Assembly (NCBI GenBank): GCA_032718475.1
Contig: JAUCBJ010008490.1
Span: 65,164-129,163 of the forward strand
DNA length: 64,000 nucleotides
Source of the DNA: Nemertoderma westbladi
Lineage: Eukaryota > Animalia > Xenacoelomorpha
Direction of reading: 5' to 3'
Positions 15,001 to 51,798 of this stretch are shown one piece after another. Made by a program: the position numbers and the translations under genes. Position 1 is the first letter of the stretch, and each line of letters begins with the position of its first letter. Under the pieces are notes generated by a model. The model saw only the letters and a program-made list of their open reading frames with translations, made no database searches and was not told the origin of the DNA.

Positions 15001-16456
15001 GATACTACGGATAATCCGAACGGATATACGGATACTACGGATAAAATCCGAACGAATATATGGATACTACGGATAATCCGAACGGATATACGGATACTAC
15101 GGATAAAATCCGAACGGATATACGGATACTACGGATAATCCGAACGGATATATGGATACTATGGATAAAATCCGAACGGATATACGGATACTACGGATAA
15201 TCCGAACGGATATACGGATACTACGGATAAAATCCGAATGAATATATGGATACTACGGATAATCCGAACGGATATACGGATACTACGGATAAAATCCGAA
15301 CGGATATATGGATACTATGGATAAAATCCGAACGGATATATGGATACTATGGATAAAATCCGAACGGATATACGGATACTACGGATAAAATCCGAACGGA
15401 TATACGGATACTACGGATAAAATCAGAACGGATATACGGATACTACGGATAATCCGAACGGATATAAGGATACTACGGATAATCCGAACGGATATACGGA
15501 TACTACGGATAATCCGAATGGATATATGGATACTACGGATAAAATCCGAACGGATATACAGATACTACGGATAAAATCAGAAAGGATATACGGATACTAC
15601 GGATAATCCGAACGGATATACGGATACTACGGATAATCCGAACGGATATACGGATACTACGGATAAAATCCGAACGGATATACGGATACTACGGATAATC
15701 CGAACTGATATACAGATACTACGGATAATCCGAACGGATATACGGATACTACGGATAATCCGAACGGATATACGGATACTACGGATAAAATCCGAACGGA
15801 TATACGGATACTACGGATAAAATCCGAACGGATACTAGGATAAAATCCGAACGGATATACGGATACTACGGATAAAATCCGAACGGATATACGGATACTA
15901 TGGATAAAATCCGAACGGATATACGGATACTACGGATAAAATCCGAACGGATATACGGATACTATGGATAAAATCCGAACGGATATACGGATACTACGGA
16001 TAAAATCCGAACGAATATACGGATACTACGGATAATCCGAACGGATATACGGATACTACGGATAAAATCCGAACGAATATATGGATACTACGGATAATCC
16101 GAACGGATATACGGATACTACGGATAAAATCCGAACGGATATACGGATACTACGGATAATCCGAACGAATATACGGATACTACGGATAAAATCCGAACGG
16201 ATATCTGGATACTACGGATAATCCGAAAGGATATACGGATACTACGGATAATCCGAATGGATATACGGATACTACGGATAAAATCAGAACGGATATACGG
16301 ATACTACGGATAAAATCAGAAAGGATATACGGATACTTCGGATAAAATCCGAAAGGATATATGGATACTACGGATAAAATCCGAACGGATATACAGATAC
16401 TACAGATAAAATCAGAACGGATATACGGATACTACGGATAAAATCCGAACGGATAA
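1..16456. repeat. Satellite A tandem array, block 1 (monomer GGATATACGGATACTACGGAT[AA]AATC[C/A]GAAC, 32 or 30 bp)
   Basis: Continuous head-to-tail repeats; 32-bp (GGATAAAATC) and 30-bp (GGATAATC) variants interspersed; three CGGATA subrepeats per monomer. Runs off the left edge of the window. Confidence 0.98.
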
Positions 16457-16506
16457 TAGAGGCAATCCTGCAATTAATACATCAAGACGACCCCGAATTT
16501 ACCGGT

Positions 16507-17505
16507 ATGCCGGCAACAAAGCAGGATATTCTAGACGAACTTAAAAATGAACTTCCTTCGGTAATTCGATTAGCATACAATCACGTCCACCAAGCTATAA
16601 CTACAACCAACGTTCCTCATAGTTATACGCCAACTATTGAAACTACAATAACTCATCCAATAGCAATTAAACTGCCTACATTTTATGAAAAAGATTCGAG
16701 AGTTTGGTTTGACCAAATTGAACAAATCCTTTCGAATACTCCAGAGGATATTAAAAAGAACAGCCTTTTGCGAGTATTACCAACGAATGTTATTCTCGAC
16801 AGCGGTACGCAGGTTTCCGACGATTTTACAACAATAAAACTCTGTGTAATTAAATTCTTCGATGATAGCGAAGAAAAACGTCTAAAGAGACTCCTTAAAG
16901 AACAACACCTCGGAGACCGAAAACCCTCTGTTACCCTGCGACAACTTCAACGTTTGGCACCTAACAATGAAAACCTTGTAAAGTTGCGATTCCTAGAATT
17001 ATTGCCAGAACCGGTGCGTTTGGCGTTAATATCCATCGATGGAGTAGCCTTGGAGAAACTCGCGGAAATCGCGGATCGAATGGTCGAACAATTGTCGACC
17101 AATGATACAACTAATGTAAACCGAGTCACAATTCCAGGTAATAGTGCAACTGGGGGAGTAGTCCCTGAAACAGGAAACCCTATGGAAATGTGGTGCAACA
17201 ACATGACAAAACAATTATCGACATTAACGCAAGCAATCGATCGTCTATCACATCGAGATGACCATTCTCCTAACCGTGGTCGTAGTCGATATCATGGACG
17301 AAATCCAATCTCCGCCGAACGATCACCTTCAGCTGGAAGAGAATACCGACAACATCGCTCTAAGTCGCGTTCCTTCAACCCGGAAGGAAAATTCTGCTAC
17401 TACCACTGGAGGTTCGGAAGGAAAGCAACCAAATGTTCTGGTCCCGAAAGTTGCAGTTGGAGAGATGGACCACGCGAACCCTTAAACTCACAGTCGGGAA
17501 ACTAA
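16507..17505 (+). pseudogene. gag: Gag, copy 1 (start codon and first ~15 codons deleted; ORF runs from an internal Met)
   Basis: Near-identical to 28180-29271 from Met32 onward; CYYHWRFGRKATKCSGPESC (CHCC) motif. Confidence 0.9.
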
Positions 17506-20500
17506 ACCACTCCGTCGACACAGCGGCCACCGACGGGGTAAATTCTATCTACGTAGCCGCGCATCCATTCGGACAATTTTTAGCAGATAGTGGAAGCGAT
17601 TGTTGTGTTTTACCACTTTGTTACGCCACAAGTAAGTCTGTTAGTGTTCCTAATATTAAATTAAGAGCGGCCAACAAAACTCCTATAAAAGTAATTAGTA
17701 AAGAAAAACTCTATTTTATTCTACCTGATTTTGGTAATGAGGAATTTTATTGGAATTTCTATATAGCAGATGTACCTCAACCTATATTAGGTTATGATTT
17801 TCTTAAAGAATATAGATTTTTGGTTGACTGTGTAAACAATCGTCTAATTCCAATGGATAAATTAAAACTTCCTCTGAGTAAACCCAACATTGAAATTCAA
17901 AAACAACAAACGATACTTTACAACCAAATGTTCGCAGAATTATAGTAGAAAACCCTGTTTATACTGACGAGGTTAACAAATTAGTGGATAAATACACTAC
18001 AATATTTCAACCAATCAATGTCAATGACCCAATTTTACATAAAACTGAGCACCACATACTAACGACGGGAGCGCCAACATTCTCAAAACCGAGACGACTT
18101 TTTGGTGAACGTTTAGAAATCGCTAAAAAAGTATTTAATAAATGGGAAGAACAGGGAGTCTGTTACAGAGGTGAATCCCCATACGCAACTCCTTTACACA
18201 TGGTGCCACAAACAAATTCTAAAACAACACCTTACAGAGCATGTGGTGATTACCGTAATTTAAATTCTCAAACTGTACCTGACAGATACCCAATGCCAAA
18301 CTTAAACGATATTCCCAATAAACTTCATGGCTGTACAGTGTTTTCAAAATTAGATCTTGCTTCTGCCTACACACAGATTCCGATTACTGCCACAGATCAA
18401 CTTAAAACTGCCATTACCACTCCCTTTGGGTTATTTATATTCCGTAGGATGCCCTATGGTCTGCGAAACGCAGCACAAACCTTCCAAAGGTTAATGGATA
18501 CAGTACTGCAAGGAATCCCATTTGCATGGGTATATTTAGATGATATTATGGTTGCAAGTTCAAACCCAGAAGAACATCTTATACACCTTGATATTATATT
18601 TAAACTACTGTCTTCACAAGGTCTACACCTCAGACAAGAGAAGTGTAAATTCTTTTGTTCTAACATTAATTTTGTTGGAGCTCATATTTCCGCTGCTGGA
18701 GTATCCCCATCACCCGAGAAAGTAGAAGCAATCACCTGTTTCCCACAGCCGTCCACAATTAAGGGTCTCAAAAGATTCTTAGGTATGGCTGGCTTCTACC
18801 ATAGATTTGTCCCAAACTTTTCTAGAATAGCAGCCCCACTAACTAATATGACAAGAAATATTAAAGGAAAAGGACATTTTTCTTTAAACTGGACAGATGA
18901 ATCATTAACTGCATTCAGAGAACTCAAAAATGCACTTCAGAACAGCGTAATTCTTGCTTTTCCGAAACTTGGAGCTAATTTTGAGTTAGAACTCACCACA
19001 GATGCTTCCAAAGTAGCTGCAGGTGCTGTATTACACCAGATAGTGGACAAGGTTAAAACCTTTAGCTTTCTTCTCAGCAAAGTACACTCCAAACGAATCA
19101 AACAAATCCGCATTTGATCGAGAATTACTAGCGATATATTTATCACTTAAACATTTTTCGTGGTTAATTGGAACACAATTTAATATAAAAACTGACCACA
19201 AACCACTACTACACATTCTCACTATGAAGAATCCTACACCTCAACAATCCAGATGGATCTCTTATCTCTCGGAATTCAATTGCACAATTACACACGTAGC
19301 AGGAGCCACCAATGTAGTAGCCGACACATTATCCCGTACCACATCAGCAATTAGCATTGAATATGACGAATCGTTAGCTAAAGCTCAATCAGAAGATTCA
19401 TCACTTATGTCATTTATCAACAAAACTAATCTTCCATTGAAGAAAATAGCAATTGGAGATACAATTTTATGGTGTGACGCCACAACAGATTACCTTAGAC
19501 CATATGTACCAACCAACATGAGATTTGGATTATTTTCTCAAGTTCATGGACTCTCACATTTGGGAGCTAGGGCAACTATTAAACAAATTTGTGAAAAATA
19601 CATTTGGCCTGGAATTAAACATGATCTTAGAAGATGGTGTCGAGAGTGTATCCGTTGCCAAAGAAGTAAAGTAATTAGACATACAAAGGCCCCAATTGGA
19701 TCAATTCCAACATCAGACCGTTTCCAGTCAATTCATATTGATATAGTCGGACCTCTACCACCTTCAAATGGTTTCCGTTATATGGTAACTATTATCGACC
19801 GTTTCACCAGATGGCCGGAAGTAATACCGGTGAGTAATATTGATACTATAAGTGTAGCGAAAGGACTGATCAATGGTTGGATCAGTCGTTTTGGTGTTCC
19901 TCGAGAACTCATATCAGACAGAGGAGCGCAATTTGAATCGAATATTTGGGGCGAATTGATGACTTTACTTGGTATTACACGAAAGCGAACAACATCATAT
20001 CATCCCCAGTGTAACGGCGCTGTGGAAAGGTTTCACAGAACTTTAAAGAATGCTTTAAGAGCACATGCAGTTGACTCCAGTTGGTCGGATTCATTGCCAA
20101 TGGTACTTTTGGGTCTGTGAACGAGCGTTAATTGCTCTGGATTCAGTCCATCCACAATGATTTATGGAGGAACAATAGAACTTCCTCAACAATTCTTTGT
20201 TCCAACAGATGTTGAGAAAAACACATCAACTTATTTACCGCAATATATGGAAAAACTTTTCGAAACAATAAATAATTTTACTGTTCCGGAACGGAAACAT
20301 TCAACACCAACATATATACCAACATCTTTAGACTCTGTGACGCATGTTTGGATACGAAATGATCGACTCAAGTCCAGTCTCAGTGATCGTTATAATGGAC
20401 CATTTAAGATAATTGAAAGAAAAGATAAAACAGTTAGTATTTCTATTAAAGGAAAGTTGGATACAGTTTCCATAGACCGCACAAAACCTGCCTTTGTAAA

Positions 20501-20981
20501 TACAGAGGAAGACAAAGAGCAGATCAAAACTGATAGAGTCACCCATTGTGATAAAACAACCAATAATTATACAAGTAAGACAACTCAGCATGACCAACCA
20601 CCCAAATTCAAACCTAATCAAGTCGTAATGGCTAAACGAAACGGATTTAGATTTTGGCCAGGTTTAATAATGAACAATATCACAAGGATTCGAAATTGCA
20701 AGTGTCCAACAGATTGTGTACCCATTAAGTTTTTTGGTGCAGATAGTAAAGAATTCATACCTTTGAGTAATATTTTATTATTCAAACCAGAAAATATTAA
20801 ACACGTTACCACAAGAAATTTTAATAATGCAATTGATATTGCAAAAAGGTATTTAGATTTATGTAAAGTTAACTCACTATTTAGCAATAAAACTAGCAAA
20901 ACTGTCAAATTTTCTTCAGATAAACATTATGCATATTTTTATAAAAATGATGCTCCGCAACTCATACGGGGGGTACTGTAA
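17496..20981 (+). pseudogene. pol: Pol (PR-RT-RNaseH-IN-PWWP), copy 1, disrupted
   Basis: LADSGS protease, YLDD RT, TTDAS RNase H, HHCC and D-D-E integrase (HIDIVG, ISDRG, VERFH), GPF motif. Frameshifts at ~17895-17945 and ~19050-19060; CGA>TGA stop at 20118-20120. Confidence 0.95.
20607..20855 (+). other. PWWP domain at integrase C-terminus (copy 1)
   Basis: FKPNQVVMAKRNGFRFWPGLI...VPIKFFGADSKEFIPLSNILLF...FNNAIDIA follows the PWWP pattern (VxAKxxG[YF]xxWP...xxFFG...FxxAxxxA). Confidence 0.85.
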
Positions 20982-21171
20982 TGCCTGAGTACGAAGTATT
21001 GGTGAAGGGATCTAAGATATAATATATAGAGTTATATAGAGTTACCGGTAGTGTGTGTACAGGACTACTGGATATATTGAGAGAATAGAGAATTATAAGA
21101 TCTGATTAAGTGATTACTTTAATATATTATTTTCTTCTATTTGTCTATTAAATATTGTATGTTACATTATA
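20977..21171 (+). repeat. 3' LTR of Gypsy copy 1 (195 bp)
   Basis: TGTAATG...CATTATA; identical by eye to 27928-28122 and 32747-32941; preceded by a G-rich PPT (CGGGGGGTAC). Confidence 0.96.
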
Positions 21172-24100
21172 GATATACGAATACTACGGATAAAATCCGA
21201 ACGGATATACGGATACTACGGATAAATTCCTAACGGATATACGGATACTACGGATAAAATCCGAACGGATATACGGATACTACGGATAAAATCCGAACGG
21301 ATATACGAATACTACGGATAAAATCCTAACGGATATACGGATACTACGGATAAAATCCGAACGGATATACGGATACTACGGATAAAATCAGAATGGATAT
21401 ACGGATAATACGGATAATCCGAACGGATATACGGATACTACGGATAAAATCAGAACGGATTTACGGATAATACGGATAATCCGAATGGATATACGGATAC
21501 TACGGATAAAATCCGAACGGATATACGAATACTACGGATAAAATCCGAACGGATATACAAATACTACGGATAAAATCCGAACGGATATACGGATACTACG
21601 GATAAAATCCGAACGGATATACGAATACTACGGATAAAATCCTAACGGATATACGGATACTACGGATAAAATCCGAACGGATATACGAATACTACGGATA
21701 AAATCCTAACGGATATACGGATACTACGGATAAAATCCGAACAGATATACGAATACTACGGATAAAATCCTAACGGATATACGGATACTACGGATAAAAT
21801 CCGAACGGATATACGGATACTACGGATAAAATCAGAACGGATATACGGATAATACGGATAATCCGAACGGATATACGGATACTACGGATAAAATCAGAAC
21901 GGATATACGGATAATACGGATAATCCGAATGGATATACGGATACTACGGATAAAATCCGAACGGATATACGGATACTACGGATAAAATCCGAACGGATAT
22001 ACGGATACTACGGATAATCCGAACGGATATACGGATACTACGGATAAAATCCGAACGGATATACGGATACTACGGATAATCCGAACGGATATACGGATAC
22101 TACGGATAAAATCCTAACGGATATACGGATACTACGGATAAAATCCGAACGGATATACGGATACTACGGATAATCCGAACGGATATACGGATACTACGGA
22201 TAAAATCCTAACGGATATACGGATACTACGGATAAAATCAGAACGGATATACGGATACTACGGATAATCAGAACGGATATACGGATACTACGGATAATCC
22301 GAACGGATATACGGATACTACGGATAAAATCCGAACGGATATACGGATACTACGGATAAAATCAGAATGGATATACGGATACTACGGATAAAATCAGAAT
22401 GGATATACAGATACTACGGATAATCCGAACGGATATATGGATACTACGGATAATCCGAACGGATATACGGATACTACGGATAAAATCAGAATGGATATAC
22501 GGATACTACGGATAATCCGAACGGATATACGGATACTACGGATAATCCGAACGGATATACAGATACTACGGATAAAATCAGAATGGATATACGGATACTA
22601 TGGATAATCCAAACGGATATACGGATACTACGGATAATCCGAACGGATATACGGATACTACGGATAAAATCCGAACGGATATACGGATACTACGGATAAA
22701 ATCAGAATGGATATACGGATACTACGGATAATCCGAACGGATATACGGATACTACGGATAAAATCCGAACGGATATACGGATACTACGGATAAAATCAGA
22801 ATGGATATACGGATACTACGGATAAAATCAGAATGGATATACAGATACTACGGATAATCCGAACGGATATACGGATACTACGGATAATCCGAACGGATAT
22901 ACGGATACTACGGATAAAATCAGAATGGATATACGGATACTACGGATAATCCGAACGGATATACGGATACTACGGATAATCCGAACGGATATACGGATAC
23001 TACGGATAAAATCAGAATGGATATACGGATACTACGGATAATCCAAACGGATATACGGATACTACGGATAATCCGAACGGATATACGGATACTACGGATA
23101 AAATCCGAACGGATATACGGATACTACGGATAAAATCAGAATGGATATACGGATACTACGGATAATCAGAACGGATATACGGATACTACGGATAAAATCC
23201 GAACGGATATACAGATACTACGGATAAAATCCGAACGGATATACGGATACTACGGATAAAATCCGAACGGATATATGGATACTACGGATAAAATCAGAAT
23301 GGATATACGGATACTACGGATAATCAGAACGGATATACGGATACTACGGATAATCAGAATGGATATACGGATACTATGGATAATCCGAACGGATATACGG
23401 ATACTACGGATAATCCAAACGGATATACAGATACTACGGATAAAATCCGAACGGATATACGGATACTACGGATAAAATCAGAATGGATATACGGATACTA
23501 CGGATAATCAGAACGGATATACGGATACTACGGATAATCCGAACGGATATACGGATACTACGGATAAAATCAGAATGGATATACGGATACTACGGATAAT
23601 CCGAACGGATATACGGATACTACGGATAATCCGAACGGATATACGGATACTACGGATAAAATCCGAACGGATATACGGATAAAATCAGAATGGATATACG
23701 GATACTACGGATAATCAGAACGGATATACGGATACTACGGATAAAATCCTAACGGATATACGGATACTACGGATAAAATCCGAATGGATATACGGATACT
23801 ACGGATAAAATCCGAACGGATATACGGATACTACGGATAAAATCCGAACGGATATACGGATACTACGGATAAAATCAGAATGGATATACGGATACTACGG
23901 ATAATCAGAACGGATATACGAATACTACGGATAAAATCCGAACGGATATACGGATACTACGGATAAAATTAGAACGGATATACAGATACTACGGATAAAA
24001 TCCTAACGGATATACGGATACTATGGATAATCCGAACGGATATACGGATACTACTGATAAAATCCTAACGGATATATGGATACTACGGATAAAATCCGAA

Positions 24101-27100
24101 CGGATATACGGATACTACGGATAAAATCCGAACGAATATACGGATACTACGGATAATCCGAACAGATATACGGATACTACGGTAAAATCAGAACGGATAA
24201 ACGGATACTACGGATAAAATCAGAATGGATATACGGATACTACAGATAAAATCCGAACGAATATACGGATACTACGGATAATCCGAACGGATATACAAAT
24301 ACTACGGATAAAATCCAAACGGATATACGAATACTACGGATAAAATCAGAACGGATATACGGATACTACGGATAATCAGAACGGATATACGGATACTACG
24401 GATAATCCGAACGGATATACGGATACTATGGATAAAATCAGAACGGATATACGGATACTACGGATAAAATCCGAACGGATATACGAATACTACGGATAAA
24501 ATCCGAACGGATATACGGATACTACGGATAATCCGAACGGATATACGGATACTATGGATAAAATCAGAACGGATATACAGATACTACGGATAATCCGAAC
24601 GGATATACGGATATTACGGATAATCCGAATGGATATACGGATACTACGGATAAAATCCGAACGGATATACAGATACTACGGATAAAATCAGAAAGGATAT
24701 ACGGATACTACGGATAATCCGAACGGATATACGGATACTACGGATAATCCGAACGGATATACGGATACTACGGATAAAATCCGAACGGATATACGGATAC
24801 TACGGATAATCCGAACTGATATACGGATACTACGGATAATCCGAACTGATATACGGATACTACGGATAATCCGAACGGATATACGGATACTACGGATAAT
24901 CCGAACGGATATACGGATACTACGGATAAAATCCGAACGGATACTACGGATAAAATCCGAACGGATACTAGGATAAAATCCGAACGGATATACGGATACT
25001 ACGGATAAAATCCGAACGGATATACGGATACTAAGGATAAAATCCGAACGGATATACGGATACTACGGATAAAATCCGAATGGATATACGGATACTATGG
25101 ATAAAATCCGAACGGATATACGGATACTACGGATAAAATCCGAACAAATATACAGATACTACGGATAATCCGAACGGATATACGGATACTACGGATAAAA
25201 TCCGAACGAATATATGGATACTACGGATAATCCGAACGGATATACGGATACTACGGATAAAATCCGAACGGATATATGGATACTACGGATAATCCGAATG
25301 GATATATGGATACTATGGATAAAATCCGAACGGATATACGGATACTACGGATAATCCGAACGGATATACGGATACTACGGATAAAATCCGAATGAATATA
25401 TGGATACTACGGATAATCCGAACGGATATACGGATACTACGGATAAAATCCGAACGGATATATGGATACTATGGATAAAATCCGAACGGATATATGGATA
25501 CTATGGATAAAATCCGAACGGATATACGGATACTACGGATAAAATCCGAACGGATATACGGATACTACGGATAAAATCAGAACGGATATACGGATACTAC
25601 GGATAATCCGAACGGATATAAGGATACTACGGATAATCCGAACGGATATACGGATACTACGGATAATCCGAATGGATATATGGATACTACGGATAAAATC
25701 CGAACGGATATACAGATACTACGGATAAAATCAGAAAGGATATACGGATACTACGGATAATCCGAACGGATATACGGATACTACGGATAATCCGAACGGA
25801 TATACGGATACTACGGATAAAATCCGAACGGATATACGGATACTACGGATAATCCGAACTGATATACAGATACTACGGATAATCCGAACGGATATACGGA
25901 TACTACGGATAATCCGAACGGATATACGGATACTACGGATAAAATCCGAACGGATATACGGATACTACGGATAAAATCCGAACGGATACTAGGATAAAAT
26001 CCGAACGGATATACGGATACTACGGATAAAATCCGAACGGATATACGGATACTACGGATAAAATCCGAACGGATATACGGATACTACGGATAAAATCCGA
26101 ACGGATATACGGATACTATGGATAAAATCCGAACGGATATACGGATACTACGGATAAAATCCGAACGAATATACGGATACTACGGATAATCCGAACGGAT
26201 ATACGGATACTACGGATAAAATCCGAACGAATATATGGATACTACGGATAATCCGAACGGATATACAGATACTACGGATAAAATCCGAACGGATATACGG
26301 ATACTACGGATAATCCAAACGAATATACGGATACTACGGATAAAATCCGAATGGATATCTGGATACTACGGATAATCCGAAAGGATATACGGATACTACG
26401 GATAATCCGAATGGATATACGGATACTACGGATAAAATCAGAATGGATATACGGATACTATGGATAAAATCAGAAAGGATATACGGATACTTCGGATAAA
26501 ATCCGAAAGGATATATGGATACTACGGATAAAATCCGAACGGATATACAGATACTACAGATAAAATCAGAACGGATATACGGATACTACGGATAAAATCC
26601 GAACGGATATACGGATACTACGGATAAAATCCGAACGGATATACGGATACTACGGATAAAATCCGAACGGATATACGGATACTACGGATAATCCAAATGG
26701 ATATACGGATACTACGGATAAAATCAGAACGGATATACGGATACTACGGATAAAATCAGAAAGGATATACGGATACTACGGATAAAATCAGAACGGATAT
26801 ACGGATACTACGGATAATCTGAACGGATATACGGATACTACGGATAAAATCCGAACGGATATATGGATACTTCGGATAAAATCCGAACGGATATACGGAT
26901 ACTACGGATAAAATCCAAACGGATATACGGATACTACGGATAAAATCCGAACGGATATACGGATACTACGGATAAAATCCGAACGGATATACGGATACTA
27001 CGGATAAAATCCGAACGGATATACGGATACTACGGATAAAATCAGAACGGATATATGGATACTACGGATAATCTGAACGGATATACGGATACTACGGATA

Positions 27101-27927
27101 AAATCCGAACGGATATACGGATACTACGGATAAAATCAGAACGGATATACGGATACTACGGATAATCTGAACGGATATACGGATACTACGGATAAAATCC
27201 GAACTGATATACGGATACTACGGATAAAATCCGAACGGATATACGGATACTACGGATAAAAGCCGAACGGATATACGGATACTACGGATAAAATCCGAAC
27301 GGATATACGGATACTACGGATAAAATCCGAACGGATATACGGATACTAAGGATAAAATCCGAACGGATATGCGGATACTACGGATAAAATCAGAACGGAT
27401 ATACGGATACTACGGATAATCTGAACGGATATACGGATACTACGGATAAAATCCGAACGGATATACGGATACTACGGATAAAATCAGAACGGATATACGG
27501 ATACTACGGATAATCAGAACGGATACTACGGATAAAATCCGAACGGATATACGGATACTACGGATAAAATCCGAACGGATATACAGATACTACGGATAAA
27601 ATCCTAACGGATATACGGATACTACGGATAATCCGAACGGATATACGGATACTATGGATAATCCGAACGGATATACGGATACTACGGATAAAATCCTAAC
27701 GGATATACGGATACTACGGATAAAATCCGAACGGATATACGGATACTACAGATAAAATCCGAACGGATATACGAATACTACGGATAAAATCTGAACGGAT
27801 ATACGGATACTACGGATAATCCGAACAGATATACGGATACAACGGATAAAATCCGAACGGATATACGAATACTACGGATAACATCCTAACGGATATACGG
27901 ATACTACGGATAAAATCCGAACGGATA
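21172..27927. repeat. Satellite A array, block 2
   Basis: Same 30/32-bp monomer; contains the junction (~24580) of the large tandem duplication. Confidence 0.98.
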
Positions 27928-28122
27928 TGTAATGCCTGAGTACGAAGTATTGGTGAAGGGATCTAAGATATAATATATAGAGTTATATAGAGTTACCGGT
28001 AGTGTGTGTACAGGACTACTGGATATATTGAGAGAATAGAGAATTATAAGATCTGATTAAGTGATTACTTTAATATATTATTTTCTTCTATTTGTCTATT
28101 AAATATTGTATGTTACATTATA
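27928..28122 (+). repeat. 5' LTR of Gypsy copy 2 (195 bp)
   Basis: Direct repeat of 32747-32941; internal TATATAGAGT(T) tandem duplication; ATTAAA near the 3' end. Confidence 0.96.
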
Positions 28123-28123
28123 T

Positions 28124-28141
28124 TGGTGACCCAGACGAGAT
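28124..28141 (+). promoter_or_regulatory. Primer-binding site, tRNA-Trp
   Basis: TGGTGACCCAGACGAGAT matches the canonical tRNA-Trp PBS TGGTGACCCCGACGTGAT at 16/18 positions, 1 nt after the LTR. Confidence 0.88.
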
Positions 28142-28179
28142 ATAAATCTAAATTCGAATAAACTCTAAAAGATCTAAAG

Positions 28180-29271
28180 ATGCCTGGGGGACTAGATTTA
28201 CACAATCAACCTAAATCAATTTTAGAGGCAATCCTGCAATTAATACATCAAGACGACCCCGAATTTACCGGTATGCCGGCGACAAAGCAGGATATTCTAG
28301 ACGAACTTAAAAATGAACTTCCTTCGGTAATTCGATTAGCATACAATCACGTCCACCAAGCTATAACTACAACCAACGTTCCTCAAAGTTATACGCCAAC
28401 TATTGAAACTACAATAACTCATCCAATAGCAATTAAACTGCCTACATTTTATGAAAAAGATTCGAGAGTTTGGTTTGACCAAATTGAACAAATCCTTTCG
28501 AATACTCCAGAGGATATTAAAAAGAACAGCCTTTTGCGAGTATTACCAACGAATGTTATTCTCGACAGCAGTACGCAGGTTTCCGACGATTTTACAACAA
28601 TAAAACTCTGTGTAATTAAATTCTTCGATGATAGCGAAGAAAAACGTCTAAAGAGACTCCTTAAAGAACAACACCTCGGAGACCGAAAACCCTCTGTTAC
28701 CCTGCGACAACTTCAACGTTTGGCACCTAACAATGAAAACCTTGTAAAGTTGCGATTCCTAGAATTATTGCCAGAACCGGTGCGTTTGGCGTTAATATCC
28801 ATCGATGGAGTAGCCTTGGAGAAACTCGCGGAAATCGCGGATCGAATGGTCGAACAATTGTCGACCAATGATACAACTAATGTAAACCGAGTCACAATTC
28901 CAGGTAATAGTGCAACTGGGGGAGTAGTCCCTGAAACAGGAAACCCTATGGAAATGTGGTGCAACAACATGACAAAACAATTATCGACATTAACGCAAGC
29001 AATCGATCGTCTATCACATCGAGATGACCATTCTCCTAACCGTGGTCGTAGTCGATATCATGGACGAAATCCAATCTCCGCCGAACGATCACCTTCAGCT
29101 GGAAGAGAATACCGACAACATCGCTCTAAGTCGCGTTCCTTCAACCCGGAAGGAAAATTCTGCTACTACCACTGGAGGTTCGGAAGGAAAGCAACCAAAT
29201 GTTCTGGTCCCGAAAGTTGCAGTTGGAGAGATGGACCACGCGAACCCTTAAACTCACAGTCGGGAAACTAA
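28180..29271 (+). CDS. gag: Gag (363 aa, intact) with CX2HX9CX5C nucleocapsid motif
   Basis: KLPTFY...WFxQIE, LGDRKPSxxLRxL and CYYHWRFG motifs are typical of CsRn1/Kabuki/Boudicca-type Gag. Confidence 0.92.
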   Translation: MPGGLDLHNQPKSILEAILQLIHQDDPEFTGMPATKQDILDELKNELPSVIRLAYNHVHQAITTTNVPQSYTPTIETTITHPIAIKLPTFYEKDSRVWFDQIEQILSNTPEDIKKNSLLRVLPTNVILDSSTQVSDDFTTIKLCVIKFFDDSEEKRLKRLLKEQHLGDRKPSVTLRQLQRLAPNNENLVKLRFLELLPEPVRLALISIDGVALEKLAEIADRMVEQLSTNDTTNVNRVTIPGNSATGGVVPETGNPMEMWCNNMTKQLSTLTQAIDRLSHRDDHSPNRGRSRYHGRNPISAERSPSAGREYRQHRSKSRSFNPEGKFCYYHWRFGRKATKCSGPESCSWRDGPREPLNSQSGN

Positions 29272-29326
29272 ACCACTCCGTCGACACAGCGGCCACCGAC
29301 GGGGTAAATTCTATCTACGTAGCCGC
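29262..29326 (+). promoter_or_regulatory. -1 ribosomal frameshift signal (GGGAAAC plus stem-loop/pseudoknot); also at 17496-17560
   Basis: G GGA AAC directly before the gag TAA; pol is in the -1 frame; 6-nt spacer, then stem ACTCCGTCG/CGACGGGGT. Confidence 0.85.
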
Positions 29327-32300
29327 GCATCCATTCGGACAATTTTTAGCAGATAGTGGAAGCGATTGTTGTGTTTTACCACTTTGTTACGCCACAAGTA
29401 AGTCTGTTAGTGTTCCTAATATTAAATTAAGAGCGGCCAACAAAACTCCTATAAAAGTAATTAGTAAAGAAAAACTCTATTTTATTCTACCTGATTTTGG
29501 TAATGAGGAATTTTATTGGAATTTCTATATAGCAGATGTACCTCAACCTATATTAGGTTATGATTTTCTTAAAGAATATAGATTTTTGATTGACTGTGTA
29601 AACAATCGTCTAATTCCAATGGATAAATTAAAACTTCCTCTGAGTAAACCCAACATTGAAATTCAAAAACAACAAACGATACTTTACAACCAAATGTTCG
29701 CAGAATTATAGTAGAAAACCCTGTTTATACTGACGAGGTTAACAAATTAGTGGATAAATACACTACAATATTTCAACCAATCAATGTCAATGACCCAATT
29801 TTACATAAAACTGAGCACCACATACTAACGACGGGAGCGCCAACATTCTCAAAACCGAGACGACTTTTTGGTGAACGTTTAGAAATCGCTAAAAAAGTAT
29901 TTAATAAATGGGAAGAACAGGGAGTCTGTTACAGAGGTGAATCCCCATACGCAACTCCTTTACACATGGTGCCACAAACAAATTCTAAAACAACACCTTA
30001 CAGAGCATGTGGTGATTACCGTAATTTAAATTCTCAAACTGTACCTGACAGATACCCAATGCCAAACTTAAACGATATTCCCAATAAACTTCATGGCTGT
30101 ACAGTGTTTTCAAAATTAGATCTTGCTTCTGCCTACACACAGATTCCGATTACTGCCACAGATCAACTTAAAACTGCCATTACCACTCCCTTTGGGTTAT
30201 TTATATTCCGTAGGATGCCCTATGGTCTGCGAAACGCAGCACAAACCTTCCAAAGGTTAATGGATACAGTACTGCAAGGAATCCCATTTGCATGGGTATA
30301 TTTAGATGATATTATGGTTGCAAGTTCAAACCCAGAAGAACATCTTATACACCTTGATATTATATTTAAACTACTGTCTTCACAAGGTCTACACCTCAGA
30401 CAAGAGAAGTGTAAATTCTTTTGTTCTAACATTAATTTTGTTGGAGCTCATATTTCCGCTGCTGGAGTATCCCCATCACCCGAGAAAGTAGAAGCAATCA
30501 CCTGTTTCCCACAGCCGTCCACAATTAAGGGTCTCAAAAGATTCTTAGGTATGGCTGGCTTCTACCATAGATTTGTCCCAAACTTTTCTAGAATAGCAGC
30601 CCCACTAACTAATATGACAAGAAATATTAAAGGAAAAGGAAATTTTTCTTTAAACTGGACAGATGAATCATTAACTGCATTCAGAGAACTCAAAAATGCA
30701 CTTCAGAACAGCGTAATTCTTGCTTTTCCGAAACTTGGAGCTAATTTTGAGTTAGAACTCACCACAGATGCTTCCAAAGTAGCTGCAGGTGCTGTATTAC
30801 ACCAGATAGTGGACAAGGTTAAAACCTTTAGCTTTCTTCTCAGCAAAGTACACTCCAAACGAATCAAACAAATCCGCATTTGATCGAGAATTACTAGCGA
30901 TATATTTATCACTTAAACATTTTTCGTGGTTAATTGGAACACAATTTAATATAAAAACTGACCACAAACCACTACTACACATTCTCACTATGAAGAATCC
31001 TACACCTCAACAATCCAGATGGATCTCTTATCTCTCGGAATTCAATTGCACAATTACACACGTAGCAGGAGCCACCAATGTAGTAGCCGACACATTATCC
31101 CGTACCACATCAGCAATTAGCATTGAATATGACGAATCGTTAGCTAAAGCTCAATCAGAAGATTCATCACTTATGTCATTTATCAACAAAACTAATCTTC
31201 CATTGAAGAAAATAGCAATTGGAGATACAATTTTATGGTGTGACGCCACAACAGATTACCTTAGACCATATGTACCAACCAACATGAGATTTGGATTATT
31301 TTCTCAAGTTCATGGACTCTCACATTTGGGAGCTAGGGCAACTATTAAACAAATTTGTGAAAAATACATTTGGCCTGGAATTAAACATGATCTTAGAAGA
31401 TGGTGTCGAGAGTGTATCCGTTGCCAAAGAAGTAAAGTAATTAGACATACAAAGGCCCCACCCAATTGGATCAATTCCAACATCAGACCGTTTCCAGTCA
31501 ATTCATATTGATATAGTCAGACCTCTACCACCTTCAAATGGTTTCCGTTATATGGTAACTATTATCGACCGTTTCACCAGATGGCCGGAAGTAATACCGG
31601 TGAGTAATATTGATACTATAAGTGTAGCGAAAGGACTGATCAATAGTTGGATCAGTCGTTTTGGTGTTCCTCGAGAACTCATATCAGACAGAGGAGCGCA
31701 ATTTGAATCGAATATTTGGGGCGAATTGATGACTTTACTTGGTATTACACGAAAGCGAACAACATCATATCATCCCCAGTGTAACGGCGCTGTGGAAAGG
31801 TTTCACAGAACTTTAAAGAATGCTTTAAGAGCACATGCAGTTGACTCCAGTTGGTCGGATTCATTGCCAATGGTACTTTTGGGTCTGCGAACGAGCGTTA
31901 ATTGCTCTGGATTCAGTCCATCCACAATGATTTATGGAGGAACAATAGAACTTCCTCAACAATTCTTTGTTCCAACAGATGTTGAGAAAAACACATCAAC
32001 TTATTTACCGCAATATATGGAAAAACTTTTCGAAACAATAAATAATTTTACTGTTCCGGAACGGAAACATTCAACACCAACATATATACCAACATCTTTA
32101 GACTCTGTGACGCATGTTTGGATACGAAATGATCGACTCAAGTCCAGTCTCAGTGATCGTTATAATGGACCATTTAAGATAATTGAAAGAAAAGATAAAA
32201 CAGTTAGTATTTCTATTAAAGGAAAGTTGGATACAGTTTCCATAGACCGCACAAAACCTGCCTTTGTAAATACAGAGGAAGACAAAGAGCAGATCAAAAC

Positions 32301-32376
32301 TGATAGAGTCACCCATTGTGATAAAACAACCAATAATTATACAAGTAAGACAACTCAGCATGACCAACCACCCAAA

Positions 32377-32625
32377 TTCAAACCTAATCAAGTCGTAATG
32401 GCTAAACGAAACGGATTTAGATTTTGGCCAGGTTTAATAATGAACAATATCACAAGGATTCGAAATTGCAAGTGTCCAACAGATTGTGTACCCATTAAGT
32501 TTTTTGGTGCAGATAGTAAAGAATTCATACCTTTGAGTAATATTTTATTATTCAAACCAGAAAATACTAAACACGTTACCACAAGAAATTTTAATAATGC
32601 AATTGATATTGCAAAAAGGTATTTA
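32377..32625 (+). other. PWWP domain at integrase C-terminus (copy 2)
   Basis: In frame with the integrase catalytic core and GPF region in ORF 31552-32751. Confidence 0.85.
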
Positions 32626-32746
32626 GATTTATGTAAAGTTAACTCACTATTTAGCAATAAAACTAGCAAAACTGTCAAATTTTCTTCAGATAAACATTAT
32701 GCATATTTTTATAAAAATGATGCTCCGCAACTCATACGAGGGGTAC

Positions 32747-32941
32747 TGTAATGCCTGAGTACGAAGTATTGGTGAAGGGATCTAAGATATAATATATAGA
32801 GTTATATAGAGTTACCGGTAGTGTGTGTACAGGACTACTGGATATATTGAGAGAATAGAGAATTATAAGATCTGATTAAGTGATTACTTTAATATATTAT
32901 TTTCTTCTATTTGTCTATTAAATATTGTATGTTACATTATA
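32747..32941 (+). repeat. 3' LTR of Gypsy copy 2
   Basis: 195 bp; pol stop TAA lies at LTR nt 3-5; PPT-like GAGGGG just upstream. Confidence 0.96.
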
Positions 32942-35900
32942 GATATACGAATACTACGGATAAAATCCGAACGGATATACGGATACTACGGATAAATTCC
33001 TAACGGATATACGGATACTACGGATAAAATCCGAACGGATATACGAATACTACGGATAAAATCCTAACGGATATACGGATACTACGGATAAAATCCGAAC
33101 GGATATACGAATACTACGGATAAAATCCTAACGGATATACGGATACTACGGATAAAATCCGAACGGATATACGGATACTACGGATAAAATCAGAATGGAT
33201 ATACGGATAATACGGATAATCCGAACGGATATACGGATACTACGGATAAAATCAGAACGGATTTACGGATAATACGGATAATCCGAATGGATATACGGAT
33301 ACTACGGATAAAATCCGAACGGATATACGAATACTACGGATAAAATCCGAACGGATATATGAATACTACAGATAAAATCCGAACGGATATACGGATACTA
33401 CGGATAAAATCCGAACGGATATACGAATACTACGGATAAAATCCTAACGGATATACGGATACTACGGATAAAATCCGAACGGATATACGAATACTACGGA
33501 TAAAATCCTAACGGATATACGGATACTACGGATAAAATCCGAACAGATATACGAATACTACGGATAAAATCCTAACGGATATACGGATACTACGGATAAA
33601 ATCCGAACGGATATACGGATACTACGGATAAAATCAGAACGGATATACGGATAATACGGATAATCCGAACGGATATACGGATACTACGGATAAAATCAGA
33701 ACGGATATACGGATAATACGGATAATCCGAATGGATATACGGATACTACGGATAAAATCCGAACGGATATACGGATACTACGGATAAAATCCGAACGGAT
33801 ATACGGATACTACGGATAATCCGAACGGATATACGGATACTACGGATAAAATCCGAACGGATATACGGATACTACGGATAATCCGAACGGATATACGGAT
33901 ACTACGGATAAAATCCTAATGGATATACGGATACTACGGATAAAATCCGAACAGATATACGGATACTACGGATAATCCGAACGGATATACGGATACTACG
34001 GATAAAATCCTAACGGATATACGGATACTACGGATAAAATCAGAACGGATATACGGATACTACGGATAATCAGAACGGATATACGGATACTACGGATAAT
34101 CCGAACGGATATACGGATACTACGGATAAAATCCGAACGGATATACGGATACTACGGATAAAATCAGAATGGATATACGGATACTACGGATAAAATCAGA
34201 ATGGATATACAGATACTACGGATAATCCGAACGGATATATGGATACTACGGATAATCCGAACGGATATACGGATACTACGGATAAAATCAGAATGGATAT
34301 ACGGATACTACGGATAATCCGAACGGATATACGGATACTACGGATAATCCGAACGGATATACAGATACTACGGATAAAATCAGAATGGATATACGGATAC
34401 TATGGATAATCCAAACGGATATACGGATACTACGGATAATCCGAACGGATATACGGATACTACGGATAAAATCCGAACGGATATACGGATACTACGGATA
34501 AAATCAGAATGGATATACGGATACTACGGATAATCCGAACGGATATACGGATACTACGGATAAAATCCGAACGGATATACGGATACTACAGATAAAATCA
34601 GAATGGATATACGGATACTACGGATAAAATCAGAATGGATATACAGATACTACGGATAATCCGAACGGATATACGGATACTACGGATAATCCGAATGGAT
34701 ATACGGATACTACGGATAAAATCAGAATGGATATACGGATACTACGGATAATCCGAACGGATATACGGATACTACGGATAATCCGAACGGATATACGGAT
34801 ACTACGGATAAAATCAGAATGGATATACGGATACTACGGATAATCCAAACGGATATACGGATACTACGGATAATCCGAACGGATATACGGATACTACGGA
34901 TAAAATCCGAACGGATATACGGATACTACGGATAATCCAAACGGATATACGGATACTACGGATAATCCGAACGGATATACGGATACTACGGATAAAATCC
35001 GAACGGATATACGGATACTACGGATAAAATCAGAATGGATATACGGATACTACGGATAATCAGAACGGATATACGGATACTACGGATAAAATCCTAACGG
35101 ATATACGGATACTACAGATAAAATCCGAACGGATATACGGATACTACGGATAAAATCCGAACGGATATATGGATACTACGGATAAAATCAGAATGGATAT
35201 ACGGATACTACGGATAATCAGAACGGATATACGGATACTACGGATAATCAGAATGGATATACGGATACTATGGATAATCCGAACGGATATACGGATACTA
35301 CGGATAATCCAAACGGATATACAGATACTACGGATAAAATCCGAACGGATATACGGATACTACGGATAAAATCAGAATGGATATATGGATACTACGGATA
35401 ATCAGAACGGATATACGGATACTACGGATAATCCGAACGGATATACGGATACTACGGATAAAATCAGAATGGATATACGGATACTACGGATAATCCGAAC
35501 GGATATACGGATACTACGGATAATCCGAACGGATATACGGATACTACGGATAAAATCCGAACGGATATACGGATAAAATCAGAATGGATATACGGATACT
35601 ACGGATAATCAGAACGGATATACGGATACTACGGATAAAATCCTAACGGATATACGGATACTACGGATAAAATCCGAACGGATATACGGATACTACGGAT
35701 AAAATCCGAACGGATATACGGATACTACGGATAAAATCCGAACGGATATACGGATACTACGGATAAAATCAGAATGGATATATGGATACTACGGATAATC
35801 AGAACGGATATACGAATACTACGGATAAAATCCGAACGGATATACGGATACTACGGATAAAATCAGAACGGATATACGGATACTACGGATAAAATCCTAA

Positions 35901-38900
35901 CGGATATACGGATACTACGGATAATCCGAACGGATATACGGATACTACTGATAAAATCCTAACGGATATATGGATACTACGGATAAAATCCGAACGGATA
36001 TACGGATACTACGGATAAAATCCGAACGAATATACGGATACTACGGATAATCCGAACAGATATACGGATACTACGGTAAAATCAGAACGGATAAACGGAT
36101 ACTACGGATAAAATCAGAATGGATATACGGATACTACGGATAAAATCCGAACGAATATACGGATACTACGGATAATCCGAACGGATATACAAATACTACG
36201 GATAAAATCCAAACGGATATACGAATACTACGGATAAAATCAGAACGGATATACGGATACTACGGATAATCAGAACGGATATACGGATACTACGGATAAT
36301 CCGAACGGATATACGGATACTATGGATAAAATCAGAATGGATATACGGATACTACGGATAAAATCCGAACGGATATACGAATACTACGGATAAAATCCGA
36401 ACGGATATACGGATACTACGGATAATCCGAACGGATATACGGATACTATGGATAAAATCAGAACGGATATACGGATAATCCGAACGGATATACGGATACT
36501 ACGGATAAAATCCTAACGGATATACGGATACTATGGATAAAATCAGAACGGATATACGGATAATACGGATAATCCGAACGGATATACGGATACTACGGAT
36601 AAAATCCGAACGGATATACGGATACTATGGATAAAATCCGAACGAATATACGGATACTACGGATAATCCGAACAGATATACGGATACTACGGATAAAATC
36701 AGAACGGATATACGGATAATACGGATAATCCGAACGGATATACGGATACTACGGATAAAATCAGAACGGATATACGGATACTACGGATAATCAGAACGGA
36801 TATACGGATACTACGGATAAAATCCAAACGGATATACGGATACTACGGATAATCAGAACGGATATACGGATACTACGGATAATCAGAACGGATATACGGA
36901 TACTACAGATAATCAGAACGGATATACGGATACTACGGATAAAATCAGAAAGGATATACGGATACTACGGATAATCCGAACGGATATACGGATACTACGG
37001 ATAATCCGAACGGATATATGGATACTACGGATAAAATCCGAACGGATATACGGATACTACGGATAATCAGAACGGATATACGGATACTACGGATAATCAG
37101 AACGGATATACGGATACTACAGATAATCAGAACGGATATACGGATACTACGGATAAAATCAGAAAGGATATACGGATACTACGGATAATCCGAACGGATA
37201 TACGGATACTACGGATAATCCGAACGGATATACGGATACTACGGATAATCAGAACGGAAATACGGATACTACGGATAAAATCCGAACGGATATACGGATA
37301 CTATGGATAAAATCAGAACGGATATACGGATACTACGGATAATCCGAATGGATATACGGATACTATGGATAAAATCCGAACGGATATACGGATACTACGG
37401 ATAAAATCAGAACGGATATACGGATACTACGGATAAAATCAGAAAGGATATACGGATACTACGGATAATCCGAACGGATATACGGATACTACGGATAATC
37501 CGAACGGATATACGGATACTACGGATAAAATCCGAACGGATATACGGATACTACGGATAAAATCCGAACGGATATACGGATACTATGGATAAAATCAGAA
37601 CGGATATACGGATACTACGGATAAAATCCGAACGGATATACGGATACTACGGATAAAATCAGAACGGATATACGAATACTACGGATAAAATCCGAATGGA
37701 TATACGGATACTACGGATAATCAGAACGGATATACGAATACTACAGATAAAATCCGAACGGATATACGAATACTACGGATAATCAGAACGGATATACGAA
37801 TACTACGGATAAAATCAGAACGGATATACGAATACTACGGATAAAATCAGAACGGATATACGAATACTACGGATAAAATCCGAACGGATATACGAATACT
37901 ACGGATAATCAGAACGGAAATACGAATACTACGGATAAAATCCGAACGGATATACGGATAATCAGAACGGATATACGAATACTACAGATAAAATCCGAAC
38001 GGATATACGAATACTACGGATAATCAGAACGGATATACGAATACTACGGATAAAATCAGAACGGATATACGAATACTACGGATAAAATCCGAACGGATAT
38101 ACGGATACTACGGATAATCCGAACGGATATACGGATACTACGGATAAAATCAGAACGGATATACGAATACTACGGATAAAATCCGAACGGATATACGGAT
38201 ACTACGGATAATCCGAACGGATATACGGATACTACGGATAAAATCCGAACGGATATACGGATACTACGGATAAAATCCAAACGGATATACGGATACTACG
38301 GATAAAATCCGAACGGATATACGGACACTACGGATAAAATCCGAACGGATATACGGATACTACGGATAAAATCCGAACGGATATACGGATACTACGGATA
38401 AAATCCGAACGGATATACGGATACTACGGATAAAATCAGAACGGATATACGGATACTACGGATAATCCGAACGGATATACGGATACTACGGATAATCCGA
38501 ACGGATATACGGATACTACGGATAAAATCCGAACGGATATACAGATACTACGGATAAAATCCAAACGGATATACAGATACTATGGATAATCCGAACGGAT
38601 ATACGGATACTACGGATAATCCGAACGGATATACGGATACTACGGATAAAATCCGAACGGATATACAGATACTACGGATAAAATCCGAACGGATAGACAG
38701 ATACTACGGATAAAATCCAAACGGATATACAGATACTACGGATAAAATCCGAACGGATATACAGATACTACGGATAAAATCCAAACGGATATACGGATAC
38801 TATGGATAAAATCAGAACGGATATACGAATACTACGGATAAAATCAGAACGGATATACGAATACTACGGATAAAATCCGAACGGATATACGAATACTACG

Positions 38901-41900
38901 GATAATCAGAACGGAAATACGAATACTACGGATAAAATCAGAACGGATATACGAATACTACGGATAAAATCCGAACGGATATACGGATACTACGGATAAT
39001 CCGAACGGATATACGGATACTACGGATAAAATCCGAACGGATATACGGATACTACGGATAAAATCCAAACGGATATACGGATACTACGGATAAAATCAGA
39101 ACGGATATACGGATACTACGGATAATCCGAACGGATATACGGATACTACGGATAATCCGAACGGATATACGGATACTACGGATAAAATCCGAACGGATAT
39201 ACAGATACTACGGATAAAATCCAAACGGATATACAGATACTATGGATAATCCGATCGGATATACGGATACTACGGATAATCCGAACGGATATACGGATAC
39301 TACGGATAAAATCCGAACGGATATACAGATACTACGGATAAAATCCGAACGGATATACAGATACTACGGATAAAATCCAAACGGATATACGGATACTATG
39401 GATAAAATCAGAACGGATATACAGATACTACGGATAAAATCAGAATGGATATACGGATACTACGGATAATCCGAATGGATATACGGATACTACGGATAAA
39501 ATCCGAACGGATATACGGATACTACGGATAAAATCCGAACGGATATACGGATAAAATCCGAACGGATATACGGATAAAATCAGAACGGATATACGGATAA
39601 TCCGAACGGATATACGGATACTACGGATAATCCGAATGGATATACGGATACAACGGATAAAATCCGAACGGATATACGGATACTACGGATAAAATCAGAA
39701 AGGATATATGGATAAAATCAGAACGGATATACGGATAATCCGAACGGATATACGGATACTACGGATAATCCGAATGGATATACGGATACAACGGATAAAA
39801 TCCGAACGGATATACGGATACTACGGATAAAATCAGAAAGGATATATGGATAAAATCAGAACGGATATATGGATAATCCGAACGGATATACGGATACTAC
39901 GGATAATCCGAATGGATATACGGATACAACGGATAAAATCCGAACGGATAAAATCCGAACGGATATACGGATACTATGGATAAAATCAGAACGGATATAC
40001 GGATACTACGGATAAAATCCGAACGGATATACGAATACTACGGATAAAATCCGAACGGATATACGGATACTAAGGATAAAATCAGAACGGATATACGGAT
40101 ACTACGGATAATCCGAATGGATATACGGATACTACGGATAATCCGAACGGATATACAGATACTATGGATAATCCGAACGGATATACGGATAATCCGAATG
40201 GATATACGGATACTACGGATAAAATCCGAACGGATATACAGATACTACGGATAAAATCAGAACGGATATACGGATACTACGGATAATCCGAATGGATATA
40301 CGGATACTACGGATAAAATCCGAACGGATATACGGATACTACGGATAAAATCCGAACGGATATACGGATACTATGGATAAAATCAGAACGGATAAAATCC
40401 GAACGGATATACGGATACTATGGATAAAATCAGAACGGATATACGGATACTACGGATAAAATCCGAACGGATATACGAATACTACGGATAAAATCCGAAC
40501 GGATATACGGATACTAAGGATAAAATCAGAACGGATATACGGATACTACGGATAATCCGAATGGATATACGGATACTACGGATAATCCGAACGGATATAC
40601 AGATACTATGGATAATCCGAACGGATATACGGATAATCCGAATGGATATACGGATACTACGGATAAAATCCGAACGGATATACAGATACTACGGATAAAA
40701 TCAGAACGGATATACGGATACTACGGATAATCCGAATGGATATACGGATACTACGGATAAAATCCGAACGGATATACGGATACTACGGATAAAATCCGAA
40801 CGGATATACGGATACTACGGATAAAATCAGAACGGATATACGGATACTACGGATAAAATCAGAACGGATATACGGATACTACGGATAAAATCAGAACGGA
40901 TATACGGATACTACGGATAAAATCAGAACGGATATATGGATACTACGGATAAAATCAGAACGGATATACGGATACTACGGATAAAATCAGAACGGATATA
41001 CGGATACTACGGATAAAATCCGAACGGATATACGGATACTACGGATAAAATACGAACGGATATACGGATACTACGGATAATCCGAACGGATATACGGATA
41101 CTACGGATAAAATCAGAATGGATATACGGATACTACGGATAAAATCAGAACGGATATACGGATACTACGGATAAAATCAGAACGGATATACGGATACTAC
41201 GGATAAAATCCGAACGGATATACGGATACTACGGATAAAATCCGAACGGATATACGGATACTACGGATAAAATACGAACGGATATACGGATACTACGGAT
41301 AATCCGAACGGATATACGGATACTACGGATAAAATCCGAACGGATATACGGATACTACGGATAAAATACGAACGGATATACGGATACTACGGATAATCCG
41401 AACGGATATACGGATACTACGGATAAAATCCGAACGGATATACGGATACTACGGATAAAATACGAACGGATATACGGATACTACGGATAATCCGAACGGA
41501 TATACGGATACTACGGATAAAATCCGAACGGATATACGGATACTACGGATAAAATACGAACGGATATACGGATACTACGGATAATCCGAACGGATATACG
41601 GATACTACGGATAATCTGAATGGATATACGGATACTACGGATAAAATCAGAACGGATATACGAATACTACGGATAAAATCAGAACGGATATACGGATAAT
41701 CAGAACGGATATACGGATACTACGGATAAAATCAGAACAGATATACGGATACTACGGATAATCAGAACGGATATACGGATACTACGGATAAAATCAGAAC
41801 GGATATACGGATACTACGGATAATCAGAACGGATATACGGATACTACGGATAAAATCAGAACGGATATACGGATACTACGGATAATCTGAACGGATATAC

Positions 41901-42420
41901 GGATACTACGGATAAAATCAGAACGGATATATGGATACTACGGATAAAATCAGAACGGATATACGGATACTACGGATAATCTGAACGGATATACGGATAC
42001 TACGGATAATCCGAACGGATATACGGATACTACGGATAAAATCAGAACGGATATATGGATACTACGGATAAAATCAGAACGGATATATGGATACTACGGA
42101 TAAAATCAGAACGGATATACGGATACTACGGATAAAATCCGAACGGATATACGGATACTACGGATAAAATCAGAACGGATATATGGATACTACGGATAAA
42201 ATCAGAACGGATATATGGATACTACGGATAAAATCAGAACGGATATACGAATACTACGGATAAAATCCGAACGGATATACGGATACTACGGATAAAATCC
42301 GAACGGATATACGGATACTACGGATAAAATCAGAATGGATATACGGATACTACGGATAAAATCAGAACGGATATACGGATACTACGGATAAAATCAGAAC
42401 GGATATACGGATAATCTGAA
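32942..42420. repeat. Satellite A array, block 3 (ends at the array edge)
   Basis: Same monomer; local variants (TACGAATAC, ATCCTAAC, AATACGAAC) cluster regionally. Confidence 0.98.
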
Positions 42421-42468
42421 AAAACGAAAATATCGAAATTATAAAACTTTAAATAAAATCTAATTTTC

Positions 42469-45888: not shown

Positions 45889-46013
45889 CACTGGGCCCCA
45901 GAGAAAATACATATTTGCACAACAGATACTTAGCTTCATGGATAAGACAAAACTAGTAAGACACAAATATGTTTACATAGAAATTTGATTAAAAATATCT
46001 TTCAAATATAAAT

Positions 46014-51607: not shown

Positions 51608-51778
51608 GCTATTACGTTGCCGTTAAATCGGGATCCGTTGACCCAATAGGCAAGCCTGATTGCTGACTACTGGACTAGCAGACAAGTCTGCTACTGCTAG
51701 TGCTGCGGTAAAACGATTAGGCTCTACCGGTATTACCGGTAAGAGTTATTATTGTCAGGACGACAATTTCCGGGCGAG

Positions 51779-51796: not shown

Positions 51797-51798
51797 AA

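Follow-up and report, generated by a model that had tools for sequence, protein, structure and literature searches.

A PWWP domain in the integrase tail of a Ty3/Gypsy retrotransposon lying in satellite DNA of Nemertoderma westbladi

The stretch of DNA considered here, called the window (64,000 nucleotides at its full length), holds two copies of an LTR retrotransposon surrounded by satellite DNA, and in both of them the integrase is followed by a segment resembling a chromatin-binding domain. The question raised by this locus is whether a retrotransposon lineage has taken a PWWP domain into its own integrase and, if so, what the domain would do there. Two known systems serve as points of reference: HIV-1 integrase borrows the PWWP domain of the host protein LEDGF/p75 to stay on chromatin, and the chromodomain of chromoviruses sits at the same position of the integrase as the PWWP domain of the window element.

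The element and its PWWP domain

Copy 2 is a 5,014-bp LTR element with both LTRs (Table 1). It has the features of Ty3/Gypsy elements, that is, LTRs, a primer binding site, a polypurine tract and a target site duplication, with the order gag, protease, reverse transcriptase, RNase H, integrase. The gag and protease frames overlap in -1 at 29130-29271, and the D-D-E core is recognised by the landmarks HIDIV at 31504, SDRG at 31684 and NGAVER at 31783, with the GPF motif at 32167. No env was found in the element: its integrase frame ends where the 3' LTR begins and leaves no room for one. All three LTRs (ending at 28122, 21171 and 32941) finish in TA instead of the usual CA, though the insertion is recent and accompanied by a clean 4-bp duplication.

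The 4-bp target site duplication and the -1 overlap of gag and pol are features shared with the CsRn1 clade; the primer binding site TGGTGACC at 28124..28131 is putatively of the tRNA-Trp type, and the CHCC knuckle agrees in its order and first spacings. The window element is unlike CsRn1 in the PWWP domain of its integrase tail, in its TG...TA LTRs and in the last spacing of the knuckle, which is 5 instead of 3. Members of the clade (CsRn1, PwRn1 and AgCR) are described as having a Trp-type primer site, a CHCC Gag knuckle of the form CX2HX9CX3C and a 4-bp duplication, with gag and pol that are either fused or separate or overlap in -1 (PMC2582038). No Pfam family match to a chromodomain was obtained in the window element at E <=1. 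The first-pass annotation had called the element CsRn1-like and not a chromovirus, and these hallmarks support that assignment.

Table 1. Coordinates of the features recognised in the window
Feature	Position	Strand	Remarks
30/32-bp satellite array hosting the element	1..42413	.	blocks 1-16456, 21172-27927, 32942-42413
Tandem segmental duplication	14664..36473	.	about 14664-24579 and 24818-36473; element and satellite flanks copied
Copy 1	16457..21171	+	without 5' LTR, primer binding site and gag start; 3' LTR 20977-21171
PWWP domain, copy 1	20607..20855	+	ORF, Pfam
Target site duplication, left, 4 bp, GATA	27924..27927	+	inside satellite monomer
5' LTR, copy 2, 195 bp, TG...TA	27928..28122	+	identical to both 3' LTRs
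Primer binding site TGGTGACC	28124..28131	+	behind 5' LTR
gag, CHCC knuckle CX2HX9CX5C at 29161-29220	28180..29271	+	DUF7041 match weak, below cut-off
Protease frame, DSGS at 29352	29130..29711	+	overlaps gag in -1 frame; ends at frame break
Reverse transcriptase (YLDD at 30299) and RNase H start	29660..30883	+	ends at frame break
RNase H remainder and integrase HHCC zinc finger	30810..31511	+	ORFs, Pfam
Integrase D-D-E core, GPF module, linker, PWWP, basic tail, stop	31441..32751	+	436-residue frame
Low-complexity linker, ~35 residues	32269..32376	+	low pLDDT in model
PWWP domain, copy 2	32377..32625	+	Pfam, solved-structure sequences, model, Foldseek
KTVKF, RVxF-like terminal motif	32668..32682	+	PWWP-less relatives have one too
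Short polypurine tract	32738..32746	+	upstream of 3' LTR
3' LTR, copy 2	32747..32941	+	identical to 5' LTR
Target site duplication, right, 4 bp, GATA	32942..32945	+	pairs with left GATA
BEL/Pao element, TG...CA ends, 5-bp duplication, long open frames	45630-52057	-	in 34-bp satellite
hAT-like DNA transposon without long frame, terminal inverted repeats, 8-bp duplication	52535-55244		family from TIR and TSD length only
5'-truncated LINE, reverse transcriptase, (TAG)n tail	59290-61125	-	in 34-bp satellite
BEL/Pao-like fragment start	63300-64000		by eye, without Pfam match; cut by window end

That the domain at 32377-32625 is a PWWP domain can be regarded as settled. The peptide FKPNQ...AKRYL, encoded there on the forward strand and a second time at 20607-20855, matches Pfam PF00855 with 33.2 bits in copy 2, 33.7 bits in copy 1 and 36.0 bits when the domain is taken alone, the curated cut-off of this family being 25.6 bits. 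Among sequences of solved structures the nearest to the window PWWP are LEDGF/PSIP1 and HRP-2 (E 3e-4), and a profile of the family retrieves 51 chains at E <=0.01, headed by NSD2, DNMT3B, LEDGF, HRP-2 and NSD3. A structure model built from an alignment of 10 rows (the single-sequence model had a pLDDT of 39) shows a strand barrel followed by a helix, confident at residues 161-250, with block-mean pLDDT values of 76-88 across most of the domain and 62 in one block; the beta-barrel, the insertion between strands 2 and 3 and the C-terminal helix of the PWWP fold are all present in this prediction. In a Foldseek search with the model all 42 rows listed are PWWP structures, with probability 1.00 and target TM of 0.50-0.71. 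Nothing in a viral structure library matched convincingly (best TM 0.2 on the query, with large rmsd), and the ESM Atlas yielded no usable hit.

The by-eye recognition of the domain in both copies, and of a linker between the GPF motif and PWWP, is thereby borne out, the latter being a low-complexity stretch of about 35 residues. The claim that the domain is in frame with the integrase stands in part. In copy 2 the D-D-E core and PWWP occupy one frame, but a frame break near 31457, found in this copy only, severs the zinc finger from it, and copy 1 has a stop codon (20118-20120) between its catalytic core and PWWP. Two further frame breaks, at the protease/reverse transcriptase boundary and within RNase H, are common to both copies, which differ from each other by 10 substitutions and one indel. 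Neither copy is intact, the reading frames of both being broken.

Three public runs of the same organism (two samples) cover all 30 of 30 bins of the element, including PWWP; where the frame breaks fall differs among public runs. Since contigs in these runs span the GPF-linker-PWWP junction, the fusion of integrase and PWWP is not an assembly artefact; a chimera with a host exon was rejected on the grounds that the junction is covered in three runs and is common to eight other lineages. In a fourth run, X4, only 7 of 30 bins are covered and the integrase only in part, and it was discarded as a PWWP-less form of the element because its contig merely ends ahead of PWWP. The contig depth of 95-245 for the element, set against roughly 30 in some related contigs, would hint at few copies, but depth is not a copy number and was given no weight. 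Runs X1-X3 also contain a related family of LTRs that has the same primer site and differs from window positions 28042-28176 by 10 other letters and 11 gap letters.

Relatives with a PWWP domain in the integrase tail

A HMMER search with 285 C-terminal residues against 1.84 billion representatives at 50% identity returned 3560 hits, and among the best 150 of these a PWWP domain lies behind the GPF module in eight, a number which is a lower bound. The PWWP scores are 84-127 bits in the eight as opposed to at most 4.4 bits in the rest of the best 150, with a profile in which the eight carriers were themselves included. Independently of it, six of the eight pass the Pfam PWWP cut-off and all eight match at E <=0.1; P0071 stays below the cut-off with 22.6 bits, and P0007 matches only at E <=0.1. 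All are single unnamed predicted proteins without flanks (six from Logan, one from ENA and one from JGI), among them P0004, an unbroken frame of 1128 residues with reverse transcriptase, RNase H, zinc finger, core and PWWP. The lineage envisaged by the first-pass annotation thus has at least eight further members with PWWP in the integrase tail.

In a tree of the integrase only, from which PWWP was left out, all seven placeable PWWP-bearing rows form one branch, with support of 96/79, slightly under the threshold of the tool. This tree comprises 46 rows and 182 columns; of 65 long matches the best 40 were used, and short near relatives were added, whereas the length of P0071 and P0137 did not suffice for placement. 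The PWWP state changes once in 96% of 200 bootstrap trees, and none of 500 shuffles was as low. A quick tree of 142 rows also brings seven PWWP rows together, with support of 67. The nearest rows devoid of PWWP, P0018, P0025, P0030 and P0039, have short tails, and P0012 ends early. On these sequence comparisons a single origin of the integrase-PWWP combination is favoured.

The PWWP domain is preceded by the GPF module and followed by a terminal basic motif, and because relatives devoid of PWWP have that motif too, the domain was inserted into the tail and not appended to it. We infer that PWWP was captured once, long ago, and that a host gene was its source, the domain being in frame and intronless. 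LEDGF was not accepted as the donor, as NSD2, NSD3, DNMT3B and HRP-2 are within a few bits of it. Among the nine lineages mean identity goes down from 44% for the integrase to 34% for the PWWP barrel, 28% for its helix, 19% for the tail and 16% for the linker, and the domain appears to have been retained by selection.

Word-seeded homolog searches yielded no relative among 87 candidates, only P0007 among 2255 and only P0001 among 2, and as they are too insensitive, these blanks carry no weight on the size of the family. A metagenome scan with 354 pattern matches led to two loci, L001 and L002, with no integrase in either. L001 holds at 3674-6310 a host-type multidomain chromatin gene unrelated to the element, in which PWWP is followed by PHD- and SET-like parts (trithorax/ATX-like, by eye), and L002 is a small fragment whose frames all fall short of 100 residues.

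The integrase tails of these CsRn1-like elements have a further feature. An RVxF-like motif is found in 55 of 116 integrase tails (P0001-P0150 and the window), compared with a mean of 6.3 and a maximum of 13 in 500 shuffles. RVxF is the docking motif of the PP1 phosphatase, and deltaretroviral integrases carry a PP2A-B56 motif. A literature search showed no report of an RVxF-like motif in such integrase tails; it could be a handle for a host phosphatase, or merely a basic localisation signal.

Cage residues and the possible function of the domain

PWWP domains in general have a cage of three aromatic residues (PMC3119473), which in LEDGF and HRP-2 are Y18, W21 and F44 (PMC3663649, PMC3119473). 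By alignment, the cage of the window PWWP consists of F at LEDGF position 18, W21 and F44. Of the residues previously listed as cage positions (G-F, W-P, F-F-G) the aromatics F18, W21 and F44 are therefore kept, but the glycines do not belong to the cage. The full three-aromatic cage is retained in six of the nine lineages and eroded in P0006, P0007 and P0071; W21 and P22 (LEDGF numbering) are invariant in all nine. The mark specificity of LEDGF is described as being set by M15, Y18, H48 and E49, and its W21 and F44 as being also core residues required for folding (PMC3663649). At positions 15, 48 and 49 the window has R, D and S, which are not of the LEDGF type. Position 49 is non-acidic in all nine lineages, and position 15 varies freely; in the alignment of the family profile with solved structures DNMT3B likewise has K at position 49. 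In charge the domain ranges from basic to near neutral across the lineages, with 15 K+R and 6 D+E in the window.

Our main reading, to which we assign a probability of roughly 0.55, is that PWWP would hold the integration complex on nucleosomes with a methylated lysine, H3K36me2/3 being the most likely mark, and so bias the choice of insertion sites. The steps are modelled by analogy on LEDGF/HIV and the chromoviruses. After processing of Pol, the domain would hang from the integrase on its flexible linker, the F-W-F cage would take the methyl-lysine and the basic surface nucleosomal DNA, and strand transfer would occur nearby, with a 4-bp duplication as the result. Against this reading, the sole known insertion site of the window family is satellite and not a gene body, and PWWP domains are described as binding other marks as well, namely H3K79me3 and H4K20me (PMC3119473).

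If so, the window element would resemble HIV-1 with LEDGF/p75 in that its integrase is held on chromatin by a PWWP domain, and would be unlike HIV-1 in encoding this domain in cis. Chromoviruses, e.g. MAGGY, are Ty3/Gypsy elements with a chromodomain at the integrase C-terminus (Gao et al. 2008). They share with the window element a Gypsy Pol ending in a Royal-family methyl-lysine reader for which a targeting role is proposed; the window element is unlike them in that its reader is PWWP, its backbone has CsRn1 hallmarks, and the mark to be expected, by analogy, is H3K36me in place of H3K9me. CopiaMBD of centipede and spider is reported to have captured an MBD reader (PMC6673714), and Grau-Bove et al. 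report 823 candidate fusions, mostly with chromo and PHD domains (bioRxiv 2021.11.30.470311). In these accounts, too, a host chromatin reader was captured and an effect on insertion sites was proposed, with a reader, superfamily or clade different from those of the window element. Capture of readers by transposons is thus already known for the chromodomain, PHD and MBD, and PWWP is a new reader on the same theme. PWWP was among the domains surveyed by Grau-Bove et al., whose main text names no PWWP fusion (bioRxiv 2021.11.30.470311), and the main text of PMC6673714 has no mention of PWWP. A search of the open literature, including PWWP with Metaviridae, found no PWWP-bearing retrotransposon, Repbase, Dfam, GyDB and subscription journals being outside its scope. 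The branch of Gypsy elements with a PWWP integrase is an old and apparently undescribed one.

It can be proposed, tentatively and with something like one chance in three in mind, that an old animal Gypsy clade reached the solution of LEDGF independently, capturing PWWP once and aiming by it at H3K36-methylated chromatin. Were this true, the clade would be the 'PWWP-virus' counterpart of the chromoviruses, aimed at a mark of active chromatin; LTR elements are known to encode few targeting devices of their own, and these are mostly directed to silent chromatin. With PWWP encoded in cis, the HIV-LEDGF principle would also have its natural experiment, one that would test whether elements can gain from being directed to H3K36-methylated chromatin. 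The clade supplies cage-intact and cage-eroded members, as well as PWWP-less sisters, as natural controls, so that reader and insertion pattern can be compared across genomes.

The cage residues can also be read differently. The best-kept residues, W21, P22, F44 and F45, are core residues too, positions 15 and 49 are unlike LEDGF, the cage is eroded in three of nine lineages and the domain is basic in most members, all of which would suit a mark-blind grip on DNA or nucleosomes that raises the efficiency of integration with no choice of chromatin type. We consider this rather unlikely, as position 18, a specificity residue of LEDGF, is aromatic in six of nine lineages at an identity of about 34%. 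Less probable still is that PWWP serves some other role, such as nuclear retention or protection against silencing, or that it is a tolerated, decaying passenger. The sisters P0018, P0025, P0030 and P0039 do transpose without PWWP, the region behind the GPF module is variable and tolerates insertions, and the same cage erosion could be a sign of decay; yet PWWP is in frame in nine lineages whose integrases are only 36-53% identical, its identity is twice that of the adjoining linker, and its position is that of the chromovirus chromodomain.

The satellite setting

Both copies lie within the 30/32-bp satellite, as the first-pass annotation had noted. Behind the two copies, 3.4 kb of satellite are 99.4% identical with 2 gaps, and the 1.8 kb ahead of copy 1 are 99.4% identical, with 0 gaps, to the spacer ahead of copy 2; three control pairs from the same array have 93.7-95.5% identity and 25-54 gaps. 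Because the flanks match beyond the control pairs, two independent insertions into the satellite were rejected, and the sequence points to one insertion with a later duplication of a block of about 11.8 kb. The insertion is recent, the 5' end of copy 1 underwent a deletion, and unequal exchange in the array is the most likely route of duplication.

The neighbouring 34-bp satellite contains four elements, namely two of the BEL/Pao type, a hAT-like one and a LINE. Clean target duplications flank two of the four, and no Pfam reader domain was found in five scanned ORFs of these elements. A CsRn1-like element in the company of BEL/Pao elements would suit an animal host. Outside the window, an LTR end is followed by non-satellite letters in one contig of X1 and three of X3, the LTRs shown for these contigs being 92-94% like the window LTR, so that they may belong to a sister family; among the contigs listed, none joins the exact window LTR to a flank.

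These observations bear on the suggestion, made at first sight of the locus, that PWWP directs insertion to satellite or centromeric chromatin, which the evidence does not support: the insertion seen is young (identical LTRs), has a clean 4-bp duplication and does lie in satellite, centromere-seeking LTR elements exist (PMC11735389) and H3K36me2 is reported to occur at times in pericentromeric heterochromatin (PMC11076809), but there was one event and not two, elements devoid of a reader sit in the adjacent satellite, the diverged LTR ends listed in X1 and X3 enter non-satellite letters, and the centromeric nature of the satellite is a premise only, so that targeting of this kind appears improbable.

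The array itself shows two further features. Its summed contig depth is very high in two runs, and at 42413-42474 the 30/32-bp satellite passes in a sharp junction, through an A-rich spacer of about 60 bp, into the unrelated 34-bp satellite.
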